DNA of 64,000 bases from Candidatus Sumerlaeaceae bacterium (GCA_051003195.1 JBPCLP010000008.1:28154-92153), one strand, 5' to 3'. Positions 3,543-15,473 are shown, counted from the stretch's first letter. Numbers and translations: made by a program. Notes: generated from the letters alone by a model not told the origin.

Positions 3543-3629
3543 GTCTACCGTTACTTCGTAATCTGTTCTGTGTGCCGAATCGAGGGTAAGTTTGCGTTGG
3601 TCTGGTAATGAACTACTGATTCGGCACAA
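3543..3629 (+). repeat. REP/MITE-like intergenic palindromic element, copy 1 (about 87 bp)
   Basis: GTCTACCGTTACTTCGTAATC-TGTTCTGTGTGCCGAATCGAGG...ACTACTGATTCGGCACA. Internal 11-bp inverted repeat TGTGCCGAATC/GATTCGGCACA. Near-identical copies at 5731, 33769 and 39579. Confidence 0.85.
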
Positions 3630-5730: not shown

Positions 5731-5819
5731 GTCTACCGTTAGTTCGTAATCAGTTCTGTGTGCCGAATCGAGGTCAAGTCTGGCCTTTAGTCCTCGTAAG
5801 GAACTACTGATTCGGCACA
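5731..5819 (+). repeat. REP/MITE-like intergenic element, copy 2
   Basis: About 90% identical to the copy at 3543 over the core. Sits between the ilvE start and the 3' end of the BNR gene. Confidence 0.85.
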
Positions 5820-5948: not shown

Positions 5949-8900
5949 CTATTTTAGCATCTGCCAGTCGGACGCGGCGGCAACGCTTTGGATGGAGTAC
6001 TGCTCGGCCTTCAGGCTGTAGTTGTCTATGAACCATCCAGTCGGGCCATTTCGCTTTTCTGTGAAGCCGTTCCAGTTGTAAGTAAATACAACCTGCAGCG
6101 TGTGACCGGCCCATACTGCGGGATCGAGCTCCAGAGTCGTCAGCGTGTAAGGCAGCCCAGGACCGCCGTTCACATACCCGTCCTGGTTGGGATAGGCTGT
6201 ATATGTGCCGTCGAATTTCCCAGTGTAGCCATTTTTAATTTCCAGTACACCGGCAAGTGCACTGGCCATGTCCTGCTGCGAGCCGCCGTCTCTCAGCAGG
6301 AAAACTTTGCCGCCGGCCAGGCCGTAAAGCGATGACGCGTTTGTCTGATCAAACGAGAGGACAATGCGATTCGCGGTGGCAGGAATCAGGCTGACGGGAG
6401 ACTTTAACTGGTCGAGCTGATATTGATAGGGAAACGGCTCTTCGAAATGGGCGCACGTTGCGCCAGTCGCGGGTTTGGAGGTATCTGCCACCCACGCAGA
6501 ATCCACTCCGTTCAAGTTCGTCTGCGTAAATGCTCCGAAGCCACTCTCAAACCCTTCTGAAATATCCAGCAGCGTGGCAGGCACGCCGGAGCGTAACGTG
6601 ACCGGAAGGCTTGCCGCAAAATTGCCTAGATTGCTGGACAGCGTGAGCACCAGGTTGAGCTGGCAGCCGGCCGGAATAGAATCGGGAGTCGTGAACTCGA
6701 ATGCGGTAGAATTGCCCTGGGGGGCGCCACCCTGCGGTAGCGTCGGGTAAACTGACGCGGCCTGTATCACGCCTGCTTCGGTGCTGAAGCTGGCCAGTGC
6801 GGCCACCACACCAGTGGCGTCTTCGGAACCGACATTGCTCAGGTTAATCGTAAGGCGTATTCGTTCATTCCGGTCGATGCTTCCATTGCCATTTCCGCCG
6901 ATGCCGGAGTCGTCGATGGTAACGGAATCGAGCTTGATCTCAGGCCTGCCAACCATCCAGACGCCGCGTCCATGCGTGCCTGCGAGAAGTATCGAACGCG
7001 CATTGTCGATGCAGAGATCATCGACAGCGGAATTGGGTAACCCGGTGGAATAGTTCTGCCAGGAGGTGCCACCTGTCGTGGTACGGTACACGCCGACTTC
7101 TGTACCCAGGTACCACACGGAGGGGTTTGTGGAATCCAACGCAACACAGTTGACCGCGATTGCTGGAAAACCGGCGCTTCGGTTGGTGACGATGGGGCTG
7201 CCGGCTGCATTGGATATCTCATAAACCTGGTTGCTGGTAAAGCGGTAGAACACTGCGATGAAGTGATCAGGGTTTGTTGGATCCACTGCGATATCGGAAC
7301 AGTAGGAGCCATTAGGGTGCGTCGTAACAAGCGTCCATGCCGGGAGAACGGCCGACATGTTGCTGGTGCGAAAGACTTTGCCGCTTTCGAATCCAAGGTA
7401 GCAAATCTCGCCGTTGCCTGGCGCGAACGCGACGGCGGATATTTCATTGCCGGGATCAAGCTTGCCCGTCACATCAGCCCAGGTTGCACCGGTGCGCGCG
7501 GCGGAATTGCGCAGGAGCGAATCTCCGCCGAGCACGAGCATGTTCGGATTTGTGCTGTTCAGTGCGCCCTTTGCATAGAACGGGAAGGAATACGAACTGC
7601 TGGGGAACTGCGTGCTATTCGGCGAGATTTCACTCCAGCCATACCCCTGGATCGAACTGCGATATACGGTGTCGAAGATGTAGCCATTATATACATAACG
7701 GCTGTCGGTTGGGTCCCATAAAGTAAAGCCGCCATCGCCTGCGTTCACCAGGCTCCAAATGCCGGAGCCCAGGTAGCGGCATGTTCCATTATCCTGAGTA
7801 CCTGCGAGGATCTCGAACCTGGTTGGGTGGAGCGCGACCGCGTAGTTGTTGACCTGCAGCAAACCGAGCCCGGTGTTCAGGCTAACCCAGTCCGACACTC
7901 CGGGAGCATCTGTATAAAAAAGGCCGCCGTCGTTGCAGTCATAGAAGCGTGCGCCATCGGGTCGAAACAGTCCAAACTGATGATCGGCATGAAGCGACCT
8001 GTTACTTGCGACGTTTATAAAGTTGGAACTGCCATTCGTGGATCGATAAAGTGGCTGGCTGCCAGAAATATAAATCTCGTTTTCATTAACCGGATTTACC
8101 GCGACATACACGTTGTAGAAGAACTGGCCAGATCCTGAGCTCGCGTTGTAACTGCTGTCGATCTGGTTCCAGATGGCCCCTCCGTTTGTGGACTTGTAGA
8201 TTTTCAATTTGTCGTAATCAGGCGTCTGGGTCGTGAAATCAGTGTCGGCGTTAAAGACGGCGTACATGATGTTCGGGTTGGAAGGAGCCTGTACGAGATC
8301 GGCCAGTCCATCGCGGTGATTTGTGGCAATGCCCGTGTTCTGCTGTACCCAGGTGACACCGTTGTTTGTGGACTTGTAGAGACCTGAAGAGCCGGACGTG
8401 GAACTGGTTCGCGTCGCCCACCAAACCTGATTATTGCTCAAGTCCTGGATCACATTGTTAAAGCGTCCAGCCTGCGCGAGCGTAATGGACTGGAAGGCAT
8501 CGCTGGTGATGTAAATCCCGGCGAACGTCGCGGCAACAATCCTGCGCGTGGGTCCCGTTAAAGTGGTACGGTCGATCGTGATCTGCGCAATTTTTGAGCT
8601 TGCGAGGGTAGCGGACTGCCGGCTCACCCAGTTCGCACCGCTGTCGGTGGAGACGAGAATACCGGCCCCGGATTTCGCATCGCCCGACAACACGGCCTCG
8701 CCGGTGCCAACGTAGATTTCATTCGGAGCACCCTGGTTGACGGTAATACAGCCCGTCGCGAGGCTCGGCTGGTTGTCGGTGAGTGGTGTCCACGTCGCAC
8801 CATGGTTTGTTGTCTTCCACACACCGCCGTCTGCACCGCCGATGTAGAGAGTCTGGTAGGTGGGATCCGACGGATCAAATGCGGCGGACGAAATGCGACC

Positions 8901-9500
8901 GGACACCTTGCACTTGGGGCTGAAGGAGTTGGCCTGGCTTCCGACGACGGGTTGGCCATTGTATACAACGTTTGGACCGAGCTCGACCCAACGTGACCCG
9001 AAGATTTGCCCGGCGGGAAGCAGAGGAGTCTCGGGATCGGCGGGTGGTCCAACAGGCGCTGCCGTCGACTGGTCGCGCGACGGCAATTGTGGCAATGCGC
9101 GCAGCACCGGTTTGTTGCTGCGGATGTTTTCGATGCCGAGCAGCCGTAATCTCGCATGGCTGACCTTATTCTCGTCGGCCGCTAACCGGCGCCTTTTGGA
9201 TTCGTGCTGCAAGCGCCTGAAGACCATCGATTCGTCTTCCTCGCGTTCGACGACTTGCCCGGGAGCGGCGATGTCTCTCTCATCCTGGTCCCCCTTCACC
9301 GTAATTTTGGCAGGAGGGGTGGGCGGCACGGCCAGGGTGTTCAGATCGCTGGACGCGGCTGCAGGGAAAATTTGAGCATGTGCTGCCGAGCTAAGTCCAA
9401 TCGACAAAGCAAGCCAGACTTGCAGCGTGCCGCGGCTGCGGCTCGAAATTGCATCGCTCATGCGTAACGCATACACTTCAGAGTCAAAGGCATGACACAA
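5949..9500 (-). CDS. large secreted BNR/Asp-box repeat beta-propeller protein (sortilin/Vps10- or GH74-like) with C-terminal CARDB/Ig-like domains; signal peptide likely begins at the internal Met at 9461
   Basis: 1183 aa. Multiple S-x-D-x-G-x-T-W Asp-box motifs (TTNHGATW, STDSGANW, STNNGVTW, STNGGAIW, TTTGGTSW). Hydrophobic signal sequence LALSIGLSSAAHAQ. Confidence 0.8.
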   Translation of the reverse strand: MCHAFDSEVYALRMSDAISSRSRGTLQVWLALSIGLSSAAHAQIFPAAASSDLNTLAVPPTPPAKITVKGDQDERDIAAPGQVVEREEDESMVFRRLQHESKRRRLAADENKVSHARLRLLGIENIRSNKPVLRALPQLPSRDQSTAAPVGPPADPETPLLPAGQIFGSRWVELGPNVVYNGQPVVGSQANSFSPKCKVSGRISSAAFDPSDPTYQTLYIGGADGGVWKTTNHGATWTPLTDNQPSLATGCITVNQGAPNEIYVGTGEAVLSGDAKSGAGILVSTDSGANWVSRQSATLASSKIAQITIDRTTLTGPTRRIVAATFAGIYITSDAFQSITLAQAGRFNNVIQDLSNNQVWWATRTSSTSGSSGLYKSTNNGVTWVQQNTGIATNHRDGLADLVQAPSNPNIMYAVFNADTDFTTQTPDYDKLKIYKSTNGGAIWNQIDSSYNASSGSGQFFYNVYVAVNPVNENEIYISGSQPLYRSTNGSSNFINVASNRSLHADHQFGLFRPDGARFYDCNDGGLFYTDAPGVSDWVSLNTGLGLLQVNNYAVALHPTRFEILAGTQDNGTCRYLGSGIWSLVNAGDGGFTLWDPTDSRYVYNGYIFDTVYRSSIQGYGWSEISPNSTQFPSSSYSFPFYAKGALNSTNPNMLVLGGDSLLRNSAARTGATWADVTGKLDPGNEISAVAFAPGNGEICYLGFESGKVFRTSNMSAVLPAWTLVTTHPNGSYCSDIAVDPTNPDHFIAVFYRFTSNQVYEISNAAGSPIVTNRSAGFPAIAVNCVALDSTNPSVWYLGTEVGVYRTTTGGTSWQNYSTGLPNSAVDDLCIDNARSILLAGTHGRGVWMVGRPEIKLDSVTIDDSGIGGNGNGSIDRNERIRLTINLSNVGSEDATGVVAALASFSTEAGVIQAASVYPTLPQGGAPQGNSTAFEFTTPDSIPAGCQLNLVLTLSSNLGNFAASLPVTLRSGVPATLLDISEGFESGFGAFTQTNLNGVDSAWVADTSKPATGATCAHFEEPFPYQYQLDQLKSPVSLIPATANRIVLSFDQTNASSLYGLAGGKVFLLRDGGSQQDMASALAGVLEIKNGYTGKFDGTYTAYPNQDGYVNGGPGLPYTLTTLELDPAVWAGHTLQVVFTYNWNGFTEKRNGPTGWFIDNYSLKAEQYSIQSVAAASDWQMLK

Positions 9501-9622
9501 TCATGTGACAACCCGGCGCGGGCAACCTTAAAGGATTAAGGAACAATGGATGGAAAGCTGCCTGACGCAGAGAATCCAGATTGTTTGAACGCAGAGTGCA
9601 GCATGAGGTATAGTGTGCTTCG

Positions 9623-10579
9623 ATGGCTGACACTCCAGCAGTTGAATTTCGCGAAGTTGGACACAATTACGGTAATCATCCCGCGTTGCAGGGAGTATCG
9701 TTCCAGGTGGGACAGGGCGAAATTTTTGCGCTGCTGGGCCCAAATGGCGGCGGTAAAACCACCCTGTTTCGCATTTTATCCACGCAGATGCAGGCCAGTG
9801 CCGGTACGGCATTCGTACTTGGAGTGGACGTCTCACAAAATCCCGGCGTCGCACGACAGCACATGGGAGTCGTGTTTCAATCGCCAAGCCTCGACAAGAA
9901 ACTGACGGCTGAAGAGAACCTGGTGCACCAGGGACATTTATATGGGCTTCGAGGATCGCACCTGAAGGCGCGCATGGATCGGGCGCTTGAGGCCGTGGAC
10001 CTGTTCCAGCGCAGGCGGGAGCGGGTCGAAAAGTTTTCAGGCGGAATGCAGCGACGTGTTGAGGTGGCAAAGGCGCTGATGCATGATCCCGACCTGCTGC
10101 TGCTTGACGAGCCAAGCACGGGACTGGATCCGCACGCCAGGCTGGAACTCTGGGCGCAACTGGTGCGCCAGCGCGAGGAGAATGGTGTCACAAGCCTGCT
10201 GACTACGCACCTGATGGAAGAGGCCGAGAAGGCGGACCGCGTGGCGATTTTGCATAAGGGCAGGGTGGTTGCACTCGGTTCACCGGAAAAACTGAAGGCG
10301 ACGGTCGGGGGTGAAGTTCTGGAATTGCAGAGCAACGAGCCCAAGCGGTTACAGGCTGGTATTGCCCAGAAGTTTGGTGGCGATCCGGTTGTGATAGCTT
10401 CTGATACCGTCCGGTTGGAAACGAGCCGCGCCGACAGCACTCCGGGTGCGCGGTTGCTGGTGGACATTGTCGAGGCGTTCCCCGGCCTGGTTGAATCGGG
10501 CCGTGTAGGCAAGCCGAGCCTGGAAGATGTCTTCGTTAGATGCACGGGTCATAGATTTGAATCGGGGCCAGAAGTTTAA
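9623..10579 (+). CDS. ABC transporter ATP-binding protein (ABC-2 exporter type)
   Basis: Walker A GPNGGGKTT, ABC signature SGGMQRRV, Walker B LLLDEP. Confidence 0.9.
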   Translation: MADTPAVEFREVGHNYGNHPALQGVSFQVGQGEIFALLGPNGGGKTTLFRILSTQMQASAGTAFVLGVDVSQNPGVARQHMGVVFQSPSLDKKLTAEENLVHQGHLYGLRGSHLKARMDRALEAVDLFQRRRERVEKFSGGMQRRVEVAKALMHDPDLLLLDEPSTGLDPHARLELWAQLVRQREENGVTSLLTTHLMEEAEKADRVAILHKGRVVALGSPEKLKATVGGEVLELQSNEPKRLQAGIAQKFGGDPVVIASDTVRLETSRADSTPGARLLVDIVEAFPGLVESGRVGKPSLEDVFVRCTGHRFESGPEV

Positions 10580-10640
10580 TGCCGAAAACACAACATGTCT
10601 TCACATGCTCTCTTTTTAGTAATCCCGGTTTGCGAAAAGG

Positions 10641-11513
10641 ATGAACCACATCGATTCAACAGGCAGTGCGGCAGGCGTGAACATAATGCCGCAGGACGGC
10701 ATGCGGGAAGTGGAGCCGCTAAGCGGCATCCGCGCATTCGGTTTGGCAGCGGGCACACTGTGGCAGCGCGAACTGGTGCGATTTTTTCGGCAGCCTTCGC
10801 GTGTGATTGGCGCGTTTGCATCGCCACTGGTCTTCTGGCTGCTCATCGGTTCGGGGCTGGGCCGATCTTTTCAGCCACAGAATTCCGCCGGTGCGGCGGG
10901 GGGCGATTACCTGCAGTACTTTTTTGCGGGAACGCTCCTCCTGATTCTGCTGTTTACCGCGATCTTTTCAACGATATCGCTGATCCAGGACCGGCGCGAA
11001 GGATTTTTGCAGGGAGTCATGGTAGCGCCCATTCCGCGAGGTGCGATTGTCATGGGGAAAGTGCTTGGCGGAACCACCCTGGCGATGTTGCAGGGCCTGC
11101 TGTTTCTTTTGCTGGCGCCCCTGGCGGGCATCTCCGTCGGCCCGTCGACAGGTTTCCTCGTAGCCGGTGCGAGTTTCCTGGTGGCATTTGGACTCACGGC
11201 GCTGGGATTTGTGCTGGCCTGGCCGATGGAAAGCATCCAGGGCTTTCATGCGGTGATGAACCTCGTACTGATGCCGATGTGGCTTCTAAGCGGAGCGTTG
11301 TTTCCGGCCTCGGGCGCGAGTGGCTGGGTTCGTGCACTGATGCTGGTCAATCCGCTGACATACGGACACTCGCTGATACGTCGCGCCCTGGCGCCTGACA
11401 TCGTGGTCTCGCCGGGTCTCGGGGTGTCGCTCGGCATTACCGTGGGTTTCGCGATCGCCACATTTGCAGGTGCGTGGATCATGGCATCGCGCAAGAGGAG
11501 AATGCCGCTGTGA
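10641..11513 (+). CDS. ABC-2 family transporter permease (6 TM)
   Basis: Immediately downstream of the ATPase gene. Six hydrophobic segments in ABC-2 architecture. Confidence 0.8.
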   Translation: MNHIDSTGSAAGVNIMPQDGMREVEPLSGIRAFGLAAGTLWQRELVRFFRQPSRVIGAFASPLVFWLLIGSGLGRSFQPQNSAGAAGGDYLQYFFAGTLLLILLFTAIFSTISLIQDRREGFLQGVMVAPIPRGAIVMGKVLGGTTLAMLQGLLFLLLAPLAGISVGPSTGFLVAGASFLVAFGLTALGFVLAWPMESIQGFHAVMNLVLMPMWLLSGALFPASGASGWVRALMLVNPLTYGHSLIRRALAPDIVVSPGLGVSLGITVGFAIATFAGAWIMASRKRRMPL

Positions 11514-11530
11514 GCAGCGAAGGCGGAGAG

Positions 11531-12268
11531 ATGATGACGGAGTCGGCAGATGGTCAAGCAAGCGCGGCCGAAGTTGGGTCGACTCGCCAGCGGTCGTCAT
11601 CGCCGAAAGGCGCGTGGCTGGCGTGGATTGCGTTCACCGTGTTGATTATCGGCGTTGGCGCCGCGGCGATGTTTCAGAAACTACAGGGAGCGCGGCTCGG
11701 CGAGCCGCTCCCGAAGCTCGGGGCTGTTCCGGCATTTGGCTTTACGAACGAGAAAGGGACGTCCGTTACGCTGGCGGACCTGAAGGGGCGGCCCTGGGTG
11801 GTCGATTTTATTTTTACGCGGTGCGGTGGCCAATGCCCCCTGATGACGAGGCACATGATGGGCCTGCAGGGCTGGTTGCGGGACAAAGGGCATACCGAAG
11901 TGCAACTGGTGAGCGTGACGGTAGACCCTGAAACGGACACTCCTGAAAAGCTGGCGGAGTATGGAAAAACTTTCCACGCAGATCCCGGACAATGGACTTT
12001 TCTGACCGCTGCTAAACCTGAGATTTACGATTTGATTACCACCGGTTTTAAGCTGGGCGTAGAGGAAAACCGGGACAAGCCGGTGACGGAGATGTTTGTT
12101 CACAGTAATAAATTTGCGCTGGTGGATGCGGAGGGGCAGATCCGCGGCTATTTCGTGCTGGAGGAAGAACCGGAAATGAAGCGCATGCAGGCAGCAATCC
12201 GGCGCATCGGCATCGAACAGCGGGAGTCGCGGAAAAACAGCACCAGTGCCGACGGAAAGGACTTCTAG
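11531..12268 (+). CDS. SCO1/SenC family copper chaperone / thiol-disulfide oxidoreductase
   Basis: Thioredoxin-like fold with CxxxC (FTRCGGQCP) and a conserved His downstream. N-terminal TM anchor. RBS AAGGCGGAGAG precedes the ATG at 11531. The track's longer ORF from 11474 overlaps the permease. Confidence 0.8.
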   Translation: MMTESADGQASAAEVGSTRQRSSSPKGAWLAWIAFTVLIIGVGAAAMFQKLQGARLGEPLPKLGAVPAFGFTNEKGTSVTLADLKGRPWVVDFIFTRCGGQCPLMTRHMMGLQGWLRDKGHTEVQLVSVTVDPETDTPEKLAEYGKTFHADPGQWTFLTAAKPEIYDLITTGFKLGVEENRDKPVTEMFVHSNKFALVDAEGQIRGYFVLEEEPEMKRMQAAIRRIGIEQRESRKNSTSADGKDF

Positions 12269-12367
12269 TGTGGCGAACCAGAAGTTCATATCCACGTATC
12301 GATGTGATTCTGCGCTCGTTCGGCACACAGAACCAGTGAACGGATTTATGGGACACCGCACCAGAAC

Positions 12368-12808
12368 GTGCTGAATCGTCCTCTCAATGATTTGCCGGGT
12401 TTGAACGCATGCCTCAATGCGACCAGTGCGATGCTCCTGATTCTCGCATGGGTTTTCATTCGCCGCGGAATGGTACGGGCGCACGCGTATTGTATTACTG
12501 CCGCGCTGGCGAGTTCCGCTGCGTTCCTGACCTCCTATCTATACTACCATTTTGTGCTGCACGGACGCACGCCTTTCGGGGGTAGTGGGATCGTTCGGAC
12601 GATTTATTATAGCATCCTGCTTACGCATACCGTGCTGGCGATGGTCATTGTGCCGTTGATCGTGATGGCGCTCGTTCACGCTGCGAGGCGGCACTGGGAC
12701 AAACATCGCCGACTGGCTCGATGGACGATGCCGCTGTGGTTGTATGTTTCTGTGACGGGTGTCCTGGTGTACTGGATGCTTTACCAGATGCCCCCGGTGT
12801 TGCGATGA
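12368..12808 (+). CDS. DUF420 family membrane protein (YozB-like, usually linked to SCO/cytochrome oxidase assembly)
   Basis: 146-aa polytopic membrane protein with conserved His residues, located directly after the SCO gene. Confidence 0.65.
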   Translation: MLNRPLNDLPGLNACLNATSAMLLILAWVFIRRGMVRAHAYCITAALASSAAFLTSYLYYHFVLHGRTPFGGSGIVRTIYYSILLTHTVLAMVIVPLIVMALVHAARRHWDKHRRLARWTMPLWLYVSVTGVLVYWMLYQMPPVLR

Positions 12809-13089
12809 CGAAAGAGCAAATTGCAAAGACCGAAAGATTCAACAGCCATTCGGCGGCGCGCGCGGTTGCGATTGGCGTGTTCATAGTGTTGTGTTTCGGC
12901 GCGTGGAGCTGTCCTATGTGCAAAGATGCGGTAACGAGTGAAAGCGCCAGTGGAACTGCAGGCGCAACCATCGGGACGCGCGCACGTGGGTACTACTACA
13001 GCATTGTTGGAATGGTAAGCATGCCATTCCTGGTAATCGGTGGTGTGACGTGGGCTCTGATGCGGGAACGTCGTACCGGCACAGCATAG
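12805..13089 (+). CDS. small 2-TM membrane protein with a CPMC motif (94 aa)
   Basis: ATG overlaps the DUF420 stop (ATGA). Two hydrophobic helices flank CPMCKD. Same operon as SCO/DUF420. Confidence 0.5.
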   Translation: MTKEQIAKTERFNSHSAARAVAIGVFIVLCFGAWSCPMCKDAVTSESASGTAGATIGTRARGYYYSIVGMVSMPFLVIGGVTWALMRERRTGTA

Positions 13090-13132
13090 ATTAGCCTGTT
13101 GCATTAGTGGTGGATGGCGTCCGCCTGAACGT

Positions 13133-14599
13133 GTGCCTGATAAACCTTTCGAATTAAGCCAGCCTGTGGACGTGGATACCGGAAAGCAACGGCGCCGCGG
13201 TTGTGCCGGCTGTGGGTGCAGCGGTGGTTGCCTCACTGTTGTCGCCGTGTTAAGCCTGCTGCTCGGACTTTTCATCGTCAGTGTTCCAGCGGTTATCCGG
13301 CATTTCATGATGAAATCGATGACCACGGCTGATAACACACGACTGCAAACTCTGCTTAGAACTCCTGTAAACTTCCCCGCGGACTGGCAACAGGCGCCGG
13401 TGTTCTCGCTGGAGCTTAAGGCGGGTGTTGAGCGCACCGCAAAAGCATTCGACGCAACCGCCACTTCTTTCACCACCCAACTGCAGGATACGACCATTAC
13501 GGCCGCGATCATCGCGCTGCAGACCCGAAATCCTATCACCCCGGAAGCATGGACATCTATCGGGTTAATCGTCAGAGCAGCCAATTCGGTTATGCAGGAG
13601 ACTTCGGCAATCGCACATCTGCCGGACTACACGGCGGAATGTATTGCCCGTGCCGACCTTTGGGAGAACTCTGCCACCGGTATAGGGCTCGCCCACACCT
13701 TGCAGTTGGGACCAGCATGGGCACTTGCAGCGCATGAGTCCGCACGTGCGGAGGATTGGCCGCTTGCTTTCCACCAACTGGAAACAGCGTTTCGCCTGGG
13801 CCAGGCGGCGGCAGCCCCCGGCGATCCTGCATCGCGGTTGCGCCAGCATTTAATCCGCCATGCAGCCATTGCGACGGCTGCGATTGTAACGAGCTGCACG
13901 CAGGTTCAGCCAATGCATCACCTTCTGCACAGCCTTCGGGAGATACGTCCGAGACTGGTGCATGCGTCTGAGATGGATCCGCTGGCTCGTGATGCCGTGG
14001 GCAAGCTCCGCCAGTATGCGCGCGACGGCTTCCCTTCGAATCTGCAACCGGGCCAGCCGGGTGCCTTCTATATCCTTCAAGGAATTGAGGCCGAAGTTTA
14101 CAAGTACCCGAAATTCATGGCGGAGAATCTGCCGTTTACGGATCCGCGCAGGCCTGATTTCGAGCAGGCCGTGCGGCAGGCGGAGACCATGGGCGGCGTC
14201 GTGCGACTGAGCACGCTGCTACATCTCGCGGCAAGTTTTGTCCCGGATGTCGTCGTCAGAGTGCTGATGCAGGTTAATCCAAAAAGCGCGGCGGATGAAC
14301 AGCGGACAAATGCGTACGTAGATCTGGCCGCTCTTGCGCTGGCGAGCCGATTGTACGAAGTTGAGAGAAACGTGCCGCCGGGTTCGGCTGGAGATCTTGT
14401 TCCCGCGTTTATTGAAGCGCCGCTGCAGGATCCGTTCAGCGGAAAAGCGTACTTGTGGGACTCAGCCTCAGCGCGGTTTTACAGCGTCGGCCCTGACGGG
14501 AAGAACGATTACCTGAAAACGATTTCGGGCTCGGATGACGATCCAGGGGATATTGTACTGGGCAGCGATGGCTCGGCCTATATTGCCTATTGGCCGTAA
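13133..14599 (+). CDS. hypothetical membrane-anchored protein with an N-terminal Cys cluster (CAGCGCSGGC)
   Basis: 488 aa. Cys-rich motif immediately before a single TM helix, then a large soluble domain with no recognisable family. Confidence 0.6.
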   Translation: MPDKPFELSQPVDVDTGKQRRRGCAGCGCSGGCLTVVAVLSLLLGLFIVSVPAVIRHFMMKSMTTADNTRLQTLLRTPVNFPADWQQAPVFSLELKAGVERTAKAFDATATSFTTQLQDTTITAAIIALQTRNPITPEAWTSIGLIVRAANSVMQETSAIAHLPDYTAECIARADLWENSATGIGLAHTLQLGPAWALAAHESARAEDWPLAFHQLETAFRLGQAAAAPGDPASRLRQHLIRHAAIATAAIVTSCTQVQPMHHLLHSLREIRPRLVHASEMDPLARDAVGKLRQYARDGFPSNLQPGQPGAFYILQGIEAEVYKYPKFMAENLPFTDPRRPDFEQAVRQAETMGGVVRLSTLLHLAASFVPDVVVRVLMQVNPKSAADEQRTNAYVDLAALALASRLYEVERNVPPGSAGDLVPAFIEAPLQDPFSGKAYLWDSASARFYSVGPDGKNDYLKTISGSDDDPGDIVLGSDGSAYIAYWP

Positions 14600-14607
14600 A
14601 TAAGAGT

Positions 14608-14640
14608 CGGCACACCAGAGAACTGGTGTGCCGAATTTGT
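14608..14640. terminator. bidirectional rho-independent-type terminator hairpin between convergent genes
   Basis: CGGCACACCA-gagaac-TGGTGTGCCG followed by AATTTGT. Shares the GTGTGCCGAA core of the REP-like element. Confidence 0.6.
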
Positions 14641-14642
14641 AA

Positions 14643-15023
14643 TCAAGTTGCCGAAAGAGTCTTTTTTGCGGACTCGCTGATCTTCTGGTTCGAGTCTTCC
14701 CGCTCGCGAATTACTTTGGCGGCTTCCTCCTGCAGGTTGACCGGTTCCGGTTTCGATGGCTTTACCCGGATGACAAAGTCGTCGCGTGTCTCGCTGCCCA
14801 GCTTGGCTGTAAAGCCCTCGTTGCGCAACGCCTGGAGTAAATCGCGCTGCACTTGACGCACTTTGTCTGTCTCTGCAAAGGTTCCGTATCCGCGCTTGTA
14901 GCGCCGGACTTCGAGCCGGTAGCCACCCGTCTGTGTCGCTGCAGGGTCGTAATCCAGCATGAAGTCGGGATAGTTTCGCAATACCCGCTCGGCCAAATGA
15001 CGAAGTTTAGTCTCGTCGGCCAA
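14643..15023 (-). CDS. hypothetical protein (126 aa)
   Basis: ORF last in the amylosucrase operon on the minus strand. No recognisable domain. Confidence 0.45.
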   Translation of the reverse strand: MADETKLRHLAERVLRNYPDFMLDYDPAATQTGGYRLEVRRYKRGYGTFAETDKVRQVQRDLLQALRNEGFTAKLGSETRDDFVIRVKPSKPEPVNLQEEAAKVIREREDSNQKISESAKKTLSAT

Positions 15024-15116
15024 TTGCCCCGCCTCCTTTCTGCAGTCTTCTAATTAACAGTTATAACTCAAAATGAGGTAAGTTCGTCAAATGGATTTTG
15101 CGCGAGCTCCGGAGGG

Positions 15117-15473
15117 TTAGCCGTTTTTGAGTTCGCTCAGAATGTTCGATAGTTCTTTCAGGCGGGATCGATTAATCCGCACGGTGGGGCCGGTCCAGTC
15201 CGGATTGGTGGCGAGGTCTCGTTTTGCTTCATCCACCATGTCGGTTATGAGAGAGATAATTGAAGGCAAATCAAGCACCTTGTCGATAGCCACGGCTGCT
15301 TCCTCCGGGGCATAGATATAGCTCGTCCCTTTGATCTGATCCTGGGCGGCCTTGGCGGCCCGAAGCGCTCCGATTGTGAACCTGGTTTCCAAGGGGGAGG
15401 TGACGTCTCCTGCTGTAGAGTGTACATTTACATGCTTTGTTGTTGAGGGATAGTACCTGTCCAACCGGTCCAT
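15117..15473 (-). CDS. hypothetical protein (118 aa)
   Basis: ORF 21 nt downstream of the amylosucrase gene, same strand. Confidence 0.45.
   Translation of the reverse strand: MDRLDRYYPSTTKHVNVHSTAGDVTSPLETRFTIGALRAAKAAQDQIKGTSYIYAPEEAAVAIDKVLDLPSIISLITDMVDEAKRDLATNPDWTGPTVRINRSRLKELSNILSELKNG

Follow-up and report, generated by a model that had tools for sequence, protein, structure and literature searches.

Among the closest described systems to the genes analysed here is the oxidase assembly set of Bacillus subtilis and Staphylococcus aureus, which comprises Sco (YpmQ), CtaM (YozB, a DUF420 protein) and CtaA/CtaB. In this set, Sco serves to assemble or reduce the CuA site, and CtaM, which is required for aa3/caa3 oxidase activity in both species, acts at a late step, after haems a and a3 are present (PMC9145763; PMC4958251). 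CtaM genes co-localise with ctaB or cta operons; a 2022 review leaves the role of CtaM unassigned and expects further oxidase assembly proteins that have not yet been identified (PMC9145763). The delivery of haem A and copper to subunit I of bacterial oxidases is still poorly understood. No ABC transporter is mentioned in that review or in the CtaM paper (PMC9145763, PMC4958251), our literature search on DUF420, SenC, ctaA, ctaB or heme A synthase together with ABC-2 found no description of a transporter in the cassette, and a survey of 109 Cox/Cox15/CtaB cassettes puts sco1 at the 3' end, with an ABC pair unmentioned in the passages concerned (PMC5317091). Here we describe such a transporter in a 64-kb stretch (the window, meaning the whole of the DNA analysed) of a metagenome-assembled genome (MAG) of a Candidatus Sumerlaeaceae bacterium, in which six co-directional open reading frames (ORFs) on the plus strand at 9623–14599 encode an ABC ATPase, an ABC-2 permease, Sco, DUF420, a small CxxC membrane protein of 94 aa and a 488-aa protein. 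Judging from the sequence comparisons below, the genes at 9623–13089 are likely to be the accessory half of an A-family (aa3/caa3) haem-copper oxidase biogenesis cassette, the typical order of which is (cox genes)-ctaA-ctaB-ABC ATPase-ABC-2 permease-Sco-DUF420 (CtaM)-(small CxxC protein). The 488-aa protein is an unrelated neighbour and not a cassette member.

The initial annotation of this region had read the six genes as a copper or thiol trafficking module with a NosFY-like exporter, and its gene order, coordinates, motifs, ORF overlap and repeat core are all present in the sequence. Its Sco and DUF420 assignments were borne out by hidden Markov model (HMM) searches, with 99.1 bits for Sco on SCO1-SenC PF02630 (cutoff 22.8) and 140.4 bits for DUF420 on PF04238 (cutoff 30.5), the latter spanning profile positions 1–130 of 130 and placing the protein in the CtaM family by sequence. 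Sco carries FTRCGGQCPLM, in which CGGQC forms a CxxxC motif, and the distal His that is usually the third copper ligand lies in FVHSNKF, 89 residues past the second Cys; one hydrophobic segment near its N terminus is a predicted membrane anchor. The 94-aa and 488-aa ORFs exactly match NCBI-annotated proteins of these lengths from a Candidatus Sumerlaeaceae MAG (P0004 and P0001, respectively).

A species-representative scan with the permease alignment (one genome per species) yielded 80 loci from about 12 phyla, drawn from Acidobacteriota, Planctomycetota, Verrucomicrobiota, Bacteroidota, Elusimicrobiota, Poribacteria, Latescibacterota, NC10, Binatia, 'delta' and alpha proteobacteria and Sumerlaeales, and gene order in these loci was typed by BLAST with the window proteins plus the CtaA and CtaB of one locus (L005). 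The commonest order was CtaA-CtaB-ABC-permease-Sco-DUF420, seen in 11 of the 56 loci with enough flank, while CtaA-CtaB-ABC-permease-DUF420, without Sco, accounted for another 8 of the 56. Sco or DUF420 was encoded directly 3' of the permease in 47/70 loci (44/55 outside Verrucomicrobiota), and genes for COX1, COX2, COX3 and multihaem cytochrome c recur further upstream, as identified by ORF clustering and Pfam searches of cluster representatives. At the level of single loci, L005 reads COX15-CtaA, UbiA (CtaB), ABC, permease, Sco, DUF420; an acidobacterial locus (L009) reads CtaB, ABC, permease, DUF420; and a locus from Sumerlaeales (L011) reads ctaA-ctaB-ABC-permease-Sco-DUF420, with the cassette still joined to ctaA-ctaB. 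The close relative L004, with a permease 76% identical to that of the window, has a Sortilin-like gene followed by ABC, permease, Sco, DUF420 and a 73-aa ORF that overlaps the DUF420 stop. The order with ctaB upstream and Sco/DUF420 downstream persists in Acidobacteriota, Planctomycetota, Bacteroidota, Elusimicrobiota, Latescibacterota, NC10, Sumerlaeota and one alphaproteobacterium, often with overlapping genes, and DUF420 lies beside haem A synthesis or oxidase genes in the orthologous loci L005, L011 and L013, though not in the window.

As dozens of species in many phyla share this order, the arrangement is far beyond chance, and it is the orthologous orders and the COX1, COX2 and COX3 genes upstream of them that lead us to read the window genes as the tail of a conserved oxidase/haem A cassette. 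The association of the ABC-2 exporter, Sco, DUF420 and the CPMC mini-protein proposed by the initial annotation is thus a conserved neighbourhood tied to oxidase assembly, by synteny across the loci. Its statement that there is no adjacent oxidase target is correct for this window but does not extend to other phyla, where the orthologous cassette directly follows ctaA/ctaB and cox. In the window, the part of the cassette from the ABC ATPase onward no longer adjoins ctaA, ctaB and cox; those genes must be located in another part of the genome. Considering that the Sumerlaeales locus L011 keeps ctaA-ctaB joined to the cassette, the split is a local rearrangement. Sumerlaeota have been reported to possess an aa3-type oxidase and alternative complex III (PMC8092238).

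An ORF of ~255 aa with a weak CarboxypepD_reg-like C terminus was also observed just upstream of ctaA/ctaB in 27 loci (L058 1122–1889 and 26 others), and a copy lies at 2446–3240 of L009; this ORF may be a further uncharacterised cassette member.

For the exporter pair, the ATPase scored 117 bits on PF00005 (ABC_tran), and its best NCBIfam match was TIGR01188 (drrA), at 281 bits over residues 15–309, without reaching the curated cutoff of 312. The permease scored 96.5 bits on PF01061 (ABC2_membrane), with TIGR01247 (drrB) as its best NCBIfam match (154 bits against a cutoff of 223), and on the NosY-type PF12679, the model put forward in the initial annotation, it remained at 19.3 bits (cutoff 27.2), no single stretch passing. 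Since PF12679 falls below its cutoff while PF01061 reaches 96.5 bits and the best NCBIfam families are DrrA and DrrB, the pair is classed by sequence as DrrAB-like, not NosFY-like, and by curated threshold it lies outside DrrA/DrrB proper. The Pfam and NCBIfam scores, together with the neighbours, led us to reject the NosFY-like assignment. No CcmB match in Pfam or CcmA match in NCBIfam was present among the listed matches (for the ATPase, the best 25 of 190 NCBIfam families). The permease has conserved motifs GFLQGVxVAP and QGFHAxMN, and at least 7,996 of the 8,000 scored candidate relatives reach E ≤ 1e-10, the 120 listed ones being 56–79% identical; across phyla, permease identity in the species-representative loci is 51–63%, and the ATPase is 78–81% identical in the close relatives L004, L096 and L097. 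One solved structure matched the permease, 8tsh, a 'transport permease' (E = 0.009).

With daunorubicin-type DrrA and DrrB as the best family matches, the pair could be an ordinary DrrAB-type drug or lipid efflux pump that has no role in oxidase biogenesis and is no more than a neighbour of Sco and CtaM, a possibility to which a Verrucomicrobiota subgroup with the permease in an unrelated context (see below) and the description of the mycobacterial Rv1456c-58c operon as drug efflux (PMC7761784) would also lend themselves. However, the scores stay under the DrrA/DrrB curated cutoffs, the order with ctaB upstream and Sco/DUF420 downstream is held across many phyla, often with overlapping genes, and the 51–63% permease identity across phyla is unusually high for a drug pump, so we consider a plain efflux pump quite improbable.

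The small protein encoded after DUF420 carries WSCPMCKD and has a compact design: a signal-peptide-like helix, A-x-[AS], C-P-x-C-K-D, a linker, G-Y-Y-Y-S-I-V, a C-terminal transmembrane (TM) helix and a basic tail. Across the family, C-P-x-C-K-[DE] is followed by a linker of 15–30 residues, G-[FY]-x-x-S-I, a single TM helix and then a basic tail. The window protein had no match in Pfam or NCBIfam, and searching the two databases with six diverse members at E ≤ 5 returned noise only. The motifs CPMCKDA and G[YF][YF]YSIV of the window protein recur in its sole word-indexed homologue (P0005) and in the L004 ORF. Conservation beside Sco and DUF420 in relatives, on which the initial annotation had made its case depend, was found for this protein, whereas the 488-aa protein lacks it (see below): the small protein directly follows DUF420 in 4/4 close relatives (L004 and L096, L097 and L098, the latter three with permeases 67–74% identical to that of the window), and in seven Planctomycetota loci (L022, L028, L034, L049, L060, L069, L078) an HMM built from 14 members placed it immediately behind DUF420. 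An independent metagenome scan with small-protein peptide patterns alone gave five contigs (L091–L095), all with DUF420 immediately upstream and three of them also with Sco. Poribacteria, Elusimicrobia and one Verrucomicrobium have weaker relatives within the oxidase cluster. On these findings, the 94-aa CPMC protein is a genuine conserved partner.

Its processing can be predicted from the residues before the first Cys. Position −3 is A, V, G, L or I, mostly A; position −2 accepts anything, and many members have W, E, R, D, N, Q or H there; position −1 is A or S. These residues suggest cleavage by signal peptidase I immediately ahead of the Cys and not at a lipobox, and from the same fit we infer that the mature form would be a tail-anchored periplasmic peptide with an N-terminal Cys-Pro-x-Cys. 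A lipoprotein was rejected, as the lipobox pattern [LVI][ASTVI][GAS]C does not match, with −2 often charged or polar and −3 mostly A.

The small protein and its neighbours also bear on whether the locus could be what the initial annotation proposed, a copper or thiol trafficking module with a NosFY-like ABC-2 pair. In such a model, ATP hydrolysis would power the delivery of periplasmic copper (or sulfur/thiol) to Sco and the proteins with Cys motifs, with no involvement of haem. In its favour, a metal or thiol site is plausible in the CxxC protein, the permease and Sco genes are separated by no more than 17 nt or overlap, both here and in many loci, the Phycisphaerae have a permease-Sco-DUF420-CxxC protein unit that does not adjoin ctaA/ctaB, and PF12679 appears in the precomputed Pfam lists of some relatives. 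The window permease itself nevertheless fits PF01061 far above PF12679, the best NCBIfam matches of the pair are DrrA and DrrB, and no NosD, NosL or NosZ was present among the scanned window neighbours or in the annotated related loci. Moreover, the Acidobacteriota ABC pair keeps ctaB and DUF420, with Sco in 4 of 20 loci only, and L091 and L093 have the small protein with Sco and DUF420 and no ABC pair. We regard copper or thiol transport by this exporter as unlikely; trafficking of that kind is plausible for Sco and the CxxC protein, whereas the ABC-2 genes track ctaB/DUF420 at least as closely as they track Sco.

On the oxidase biogenesis reading, each component can be given a tentative place. 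At the periplasmic face, Sco would load or reduce the CuA site of subunit II, and the processed Cys-Pro-x-Cys peptide might assist it as a partner for copper(I) or thiol chemistry, as PCuAC or CtaK do in other systems. CtaM would act late in the maturation of subunit I, and the DrrAB-type exporter could work with CtaM and CtaB on a hydrophobic, membrane-embedded cofactor. Most likely it would move or release this cofactor, whether a farnesylated haem (O or A) or a different hydrophobic intermediate, between leaflets or assembly proteins. Haem is favoured over copper for the exporter because the ABC genes immediately follow ctaB in most full cassettes, because Acidobacteriota loci keep DUF420 (17/20) mostly without Sco, and because ABC-2 exporters usually handle lipid-like, membrane-embedded substrates; even so, haem handling by the exporter is a tentative assignment, somewhat short of even odds in our estimation. 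More speculative still, and in our view rather unlikely as a whole, is that the ABC-2 exporter, CtaM and the mini-protein constitute a so far unrecognised machine that delivers cofactors to the A-family oxidases of Acidobacteriota, Planctomycetota, Sumerlaeota, Bacteroidota and others, with the exporter flipping or releasing haem O/A and the mini-protein serving Sco as a periplasmic copper chaperone of a new class. If this were true, it would suggest that the mycobacterial Rv1456c-58c 'drug efflux' operon is really an oxidase assembly system.

Several observations weigh against assigning the window genes to an oxidase cassette, or against parts of that assignment. None of CtaA, CtaB, COX1, COX2 and COX3 is encoded in the 64-kb window, so the link rests on the orthologous loci. 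In 12/15 Verrucomicrobiota loci, a permease 54–59% identical is found with no ATPase, Sco or DUF420 nearby, and because of these loci the permease family is not exclusively tied to oxidase genes. Among Planctomycetota, an adjacent ATPase is present in just 6/19 loci, and the Phycisphaerae unit is permease-Sco-DUF420-small protein, with neither ctaA/ctaB nor an adjacent ATPase. A 99-nt gap with a REP-like element lies between Sco and DUF420, and the exporter substrate, farnesylated haem or other cofactor, is something that we entirely infer. Finally, a Corynebacterineae ABC-2 operon, including mycobacterial Rv1458c-Rv1457c-Rv1456c, has been assigned to drug efflux or glycolipid transport (PMC7761784, PMC2440535). 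A literature search for Rv1456c together with ctaA returned nothing, and one for cg1767-69 gave irrelevant matches only. Rv1456c is presumably COX15/CtaA-like, with ctaB nearby, which would make the mycobacterial operon a relative of the cassette.

Orphan-type permease loci in Verrucomicrobiae/Chthoniobacterales comprise L007, L008, L014, L015, L020, L023, L027, L029, L040, L048, L050, L051, L063 and L080, with the permease at about position 10000 in most of them. Both L007 and L008 have an AraC-type gene 7 nt upstream of the permease and purH overlapping downstream. The permease in these loci looks like an orphan of the same family in a different context. As for Planctomycetota, an unrelated FAD oxidoreductase and a GntR regulator lie upstream of the permease-Sco-DUF420-small CxxC unit in L022 (7781–12091) and in other Phycisphaerales/Tepidisphaerales loci; with none adjacent to the permease, their ATPase must be encoded elsewhere or shared.

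The last of the six genes encodes a 488-aa protein with RRRGCAGCGCSGGC directly before its hydrophobic helix, which the initial annotation had counted among the Cys-motif membrane proteins of its module. It matched nothing in Pfam or NCBIfam, and a word-index search returned two homologues only (23–25% identity), one of which (P0003) sits beside DUF456 and unrelated genes, with no Sco or DUF420 nearby, while the other has a divergent gene upstream and comes from a contig that, at 1.8 kb, is too short to judge context. An exhaustive profile search placed 4,774 representatives in the family at E ≤ 1e-3 and 155 at E ≤ 1e-30, with members of ~430–470 aa that have a TM helix at the N terminus and helical repeats, carry a nearly invariant DPF...FYSxGPD...GDI at the C terminus and lack any Pfam domain. 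That C-terminal signature may resemble GspG; neither T2SSG PF08334 nor any other Pfam family matched the C terminus even at E ≤ 10, and the family profile matched GspG (5wda, E = 0.71) and PilA (E = 0.49) only weakly among Protein Data Bank (PDB) entries. No solved structure was found close to the 488-aa protein. The AlphaFold2 model is a helical repeat of low confidence (mean pLDDT 58), and Foldseek with this model against the PDB was uninformative, returning designed or armadillo-type repeats only (E ≥ 0.014). Only the window protein has the Cys cluster, as an insertion, and just one Cys, where the TM helix begins, is conserved; a conserved metal site is thereby ruled out.

The 488-aa gene starts 43 nt past the small gene on the same strand, the sole strong terminator-like hairpin comes after it, and another sample of this species (L003) shows an identical arrangement, all of which would suit a single functional machine made of all six genes. 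In contrast, the family HMM found no member in 4/4 close relatives (L004, L096, L097, L098) or in any of the 90 other module loci, its homologue P0003 lies in an unrelated context, the Cys cluster is unique apart from one residue, and synteny with the closest relative runs from the Sortilin-like gene through the small ORF and stops exactly there. That synteny ends at this point follows from the L004 amylase being only 25% identical to the window's amylosucrase-like protein; between the latter gene and the small CxxC gene lie three genes at 13133–15473 (488 aa on the plus strand, 126 and 118 aa on the minus strand, without Pfam match) that have no L004 counterpart and occur in the window lineage only. 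A six-gene machine is thus hardly credible, and we take the 488-aa gene as inserted behind the cassette in this lineage alone.

The features of the region are listed in Table 1. The gap between ATPase and permease is 61 or 109 nt, depending on the permease start, and that between permease and Sco is 17 nt, or a 40-nt overlap if the GTG start is used; the DUF420 TGA and the ATG of the small gene overlap by 4 nt. Co-transcription of the cassette genes is plausible. The promoter-like site is the sole one on the plus strand in 9300–15100, and an Rfam scan of the same interval gave no match.

Table 1. Coordinates of genes and other features in and around the cassette region of the window
Feature	Position	Strand	Remarks
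ABC transporter ATP-binding subunit, 318 aa, DrrA-like with C-terminal extension	9623–10579	+	PF00005, 1e-33
ABC-2 permease, 274–290 aa by start codon, ~6 predicted TM helices	10641 or 10689 to 11513	+	PF01061, 2e-27
Sco/SenC copper chaperone or thiol-disulfide oxidoreductase, predicted N-terminal TM anchor	11474 (GTG) or 11531 (ATG) to 12268	+	PF02630, 3e-28
DUF420 / CtaM-family membrane protein, 146 aa	12368–12808	+	PF04238, 5e-41
Small CxxC membrane protein, 94 aa	12805–13089	+	ATGA overlap with DUF420 stop; no Pfam/NCBIfam family
N-terminally anchored helical-repeat protein, 488 aa	13133–14599	+	Outside the conserved cassette; maybe co-transcribed
Sigma-70-like promoter match, TTGAAC, 18 nt, TATAGT, ahead of the ABC ATPase gene	9585–9614	+	9/12 consensus positions; weak
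REP-like element, core copy in Sco-DUF420 gap	12319–12333	+	Exact 15-mer
Perfect hairpin, 12-bp stem, terminator-like in both directions	14607–14634		Between convergent genes

The repeat core that the initial annotation had noted between Sco and DUF420 is there as an exact 15-mer, TTCGGCACACAGAAC, which has three exact copies in the window, at 12319 (+), 3565 (−) and 5753 (−); the copies at 3550–3585 and 5745–5780 share ~34 nt. Considering that the matching gap in L004 is only 3 nt, against 99 nt in the window, the element in the Sco-DUF420 gap is a local insertion. The hairpin just 3' of the 488-aa stop has the arms TCGGCACACCAG ... CTGGTGTGCCGA and is built on a GGCACAC core related to the dispersed element, the core of which (TTCGGCACAC) was observed at 3550–3585, 5745–5780, 12319–12333 and 14607–14634.

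The genes immediately flanking the cassette in the window are unrelated to it and encode a Sortilin-like protein, an aminotransferase, an amylosucrase-like enzyme and a UDG-family protein. The first of these is a 1183-aa Sortilin/BNR-like protein (5949–9500, −) divergent from the ABC ATPase gene, and as its position is kept in L004 (62% identity) and L096, the junction is stable within the Sumerlaeaceae-like lineage. Two further genes, neither syntenic in L004, encode a protein of the 'Disulphide isomerase' family (PF06491; 4281–4721, −), 5 kb upstream of the cassette, and a CxxCxxCC protein (PF03692; 17603–17989, −), 3 kb downstream of it.

Compared with known systems, the cassette resembles NosDFY-NosL, the ABC-2-type machinery that assembles nitrous oxide reductase, in placing an ABC ATPase and an ABC-2-clan permease beside a periplasmic copper chaperone for the maturation of a copper enzyme, but it differs in a permease under the NosY-type cutoff, in having no NosD, NosL or NosZ, and in its neighbours in orthologous loci, which are haem A synthesis and cytochrome oxidase genes. 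CcmAB(CD), the haem release complex of System I cytochrome c maturation, described as an ABC system using ATP for periplasmic haem hand-over and not for solute pumping (PMC9616876), offers a conceptual precedent for the proposed exporter role, by analogy only; the listed matches hold no CcmA or CcmB family, and there are no CcmC, CcmD or CcmE partners. DrrAB, an ABC-2 exporter for daunorubicin or PDIM, is the best NCBIfam match and shares an ATPase with a C-terminal domain and a 6-TM ABC-2 permease, the window pair differing in that it remains below the curated DrrA/DrrB thresholds. The role suggested for the small CxxC protein, that of a tethered or periplasmic Cu(I) donor to Sco and CuA, would be analogous to that of PCuAC/CtaK/Cox17-type chaperones, and its gene lies alongside that of Sco. 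It has no sequence relationship to them, its putative metal site is an N-terminal Cys-Pro-x-Cys as opposed to a His/Met site, and, unlike these proteins, it is predicted to be ~55–60 aa when mature and tail-anchored.

With the Bacillus-type assembly set, the locus shares the Sco and DUF420 families, both above Pfam cutoffs, and the orthologous loci likewise follow ctaA and ctaB; the window differs in that ctaA, ctaB and cox are not adjacent. Whereas CtaM has been called not widely distributed (PMC9145763), it occurs here with Sco in many Gram-negative phyla, and where the review has neither an ABC transporter nor a small CxxC protein among the Bacillus factors (PMC9145763), two candidates recur across many phyla, an ABC-2 exporter linked to ctaB/Sco/CtaM and a small CxxC protein encoded after CtaM. 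For this genome the result is modest, an ordinary copy of the cassette, split from the oxidase genes and with an unrelated gene inserted downstream. The cassette itself is widespread and visible in databases, and the ABC-2 exporter and the small CxxC protein are its two uncharacterised conserved components.

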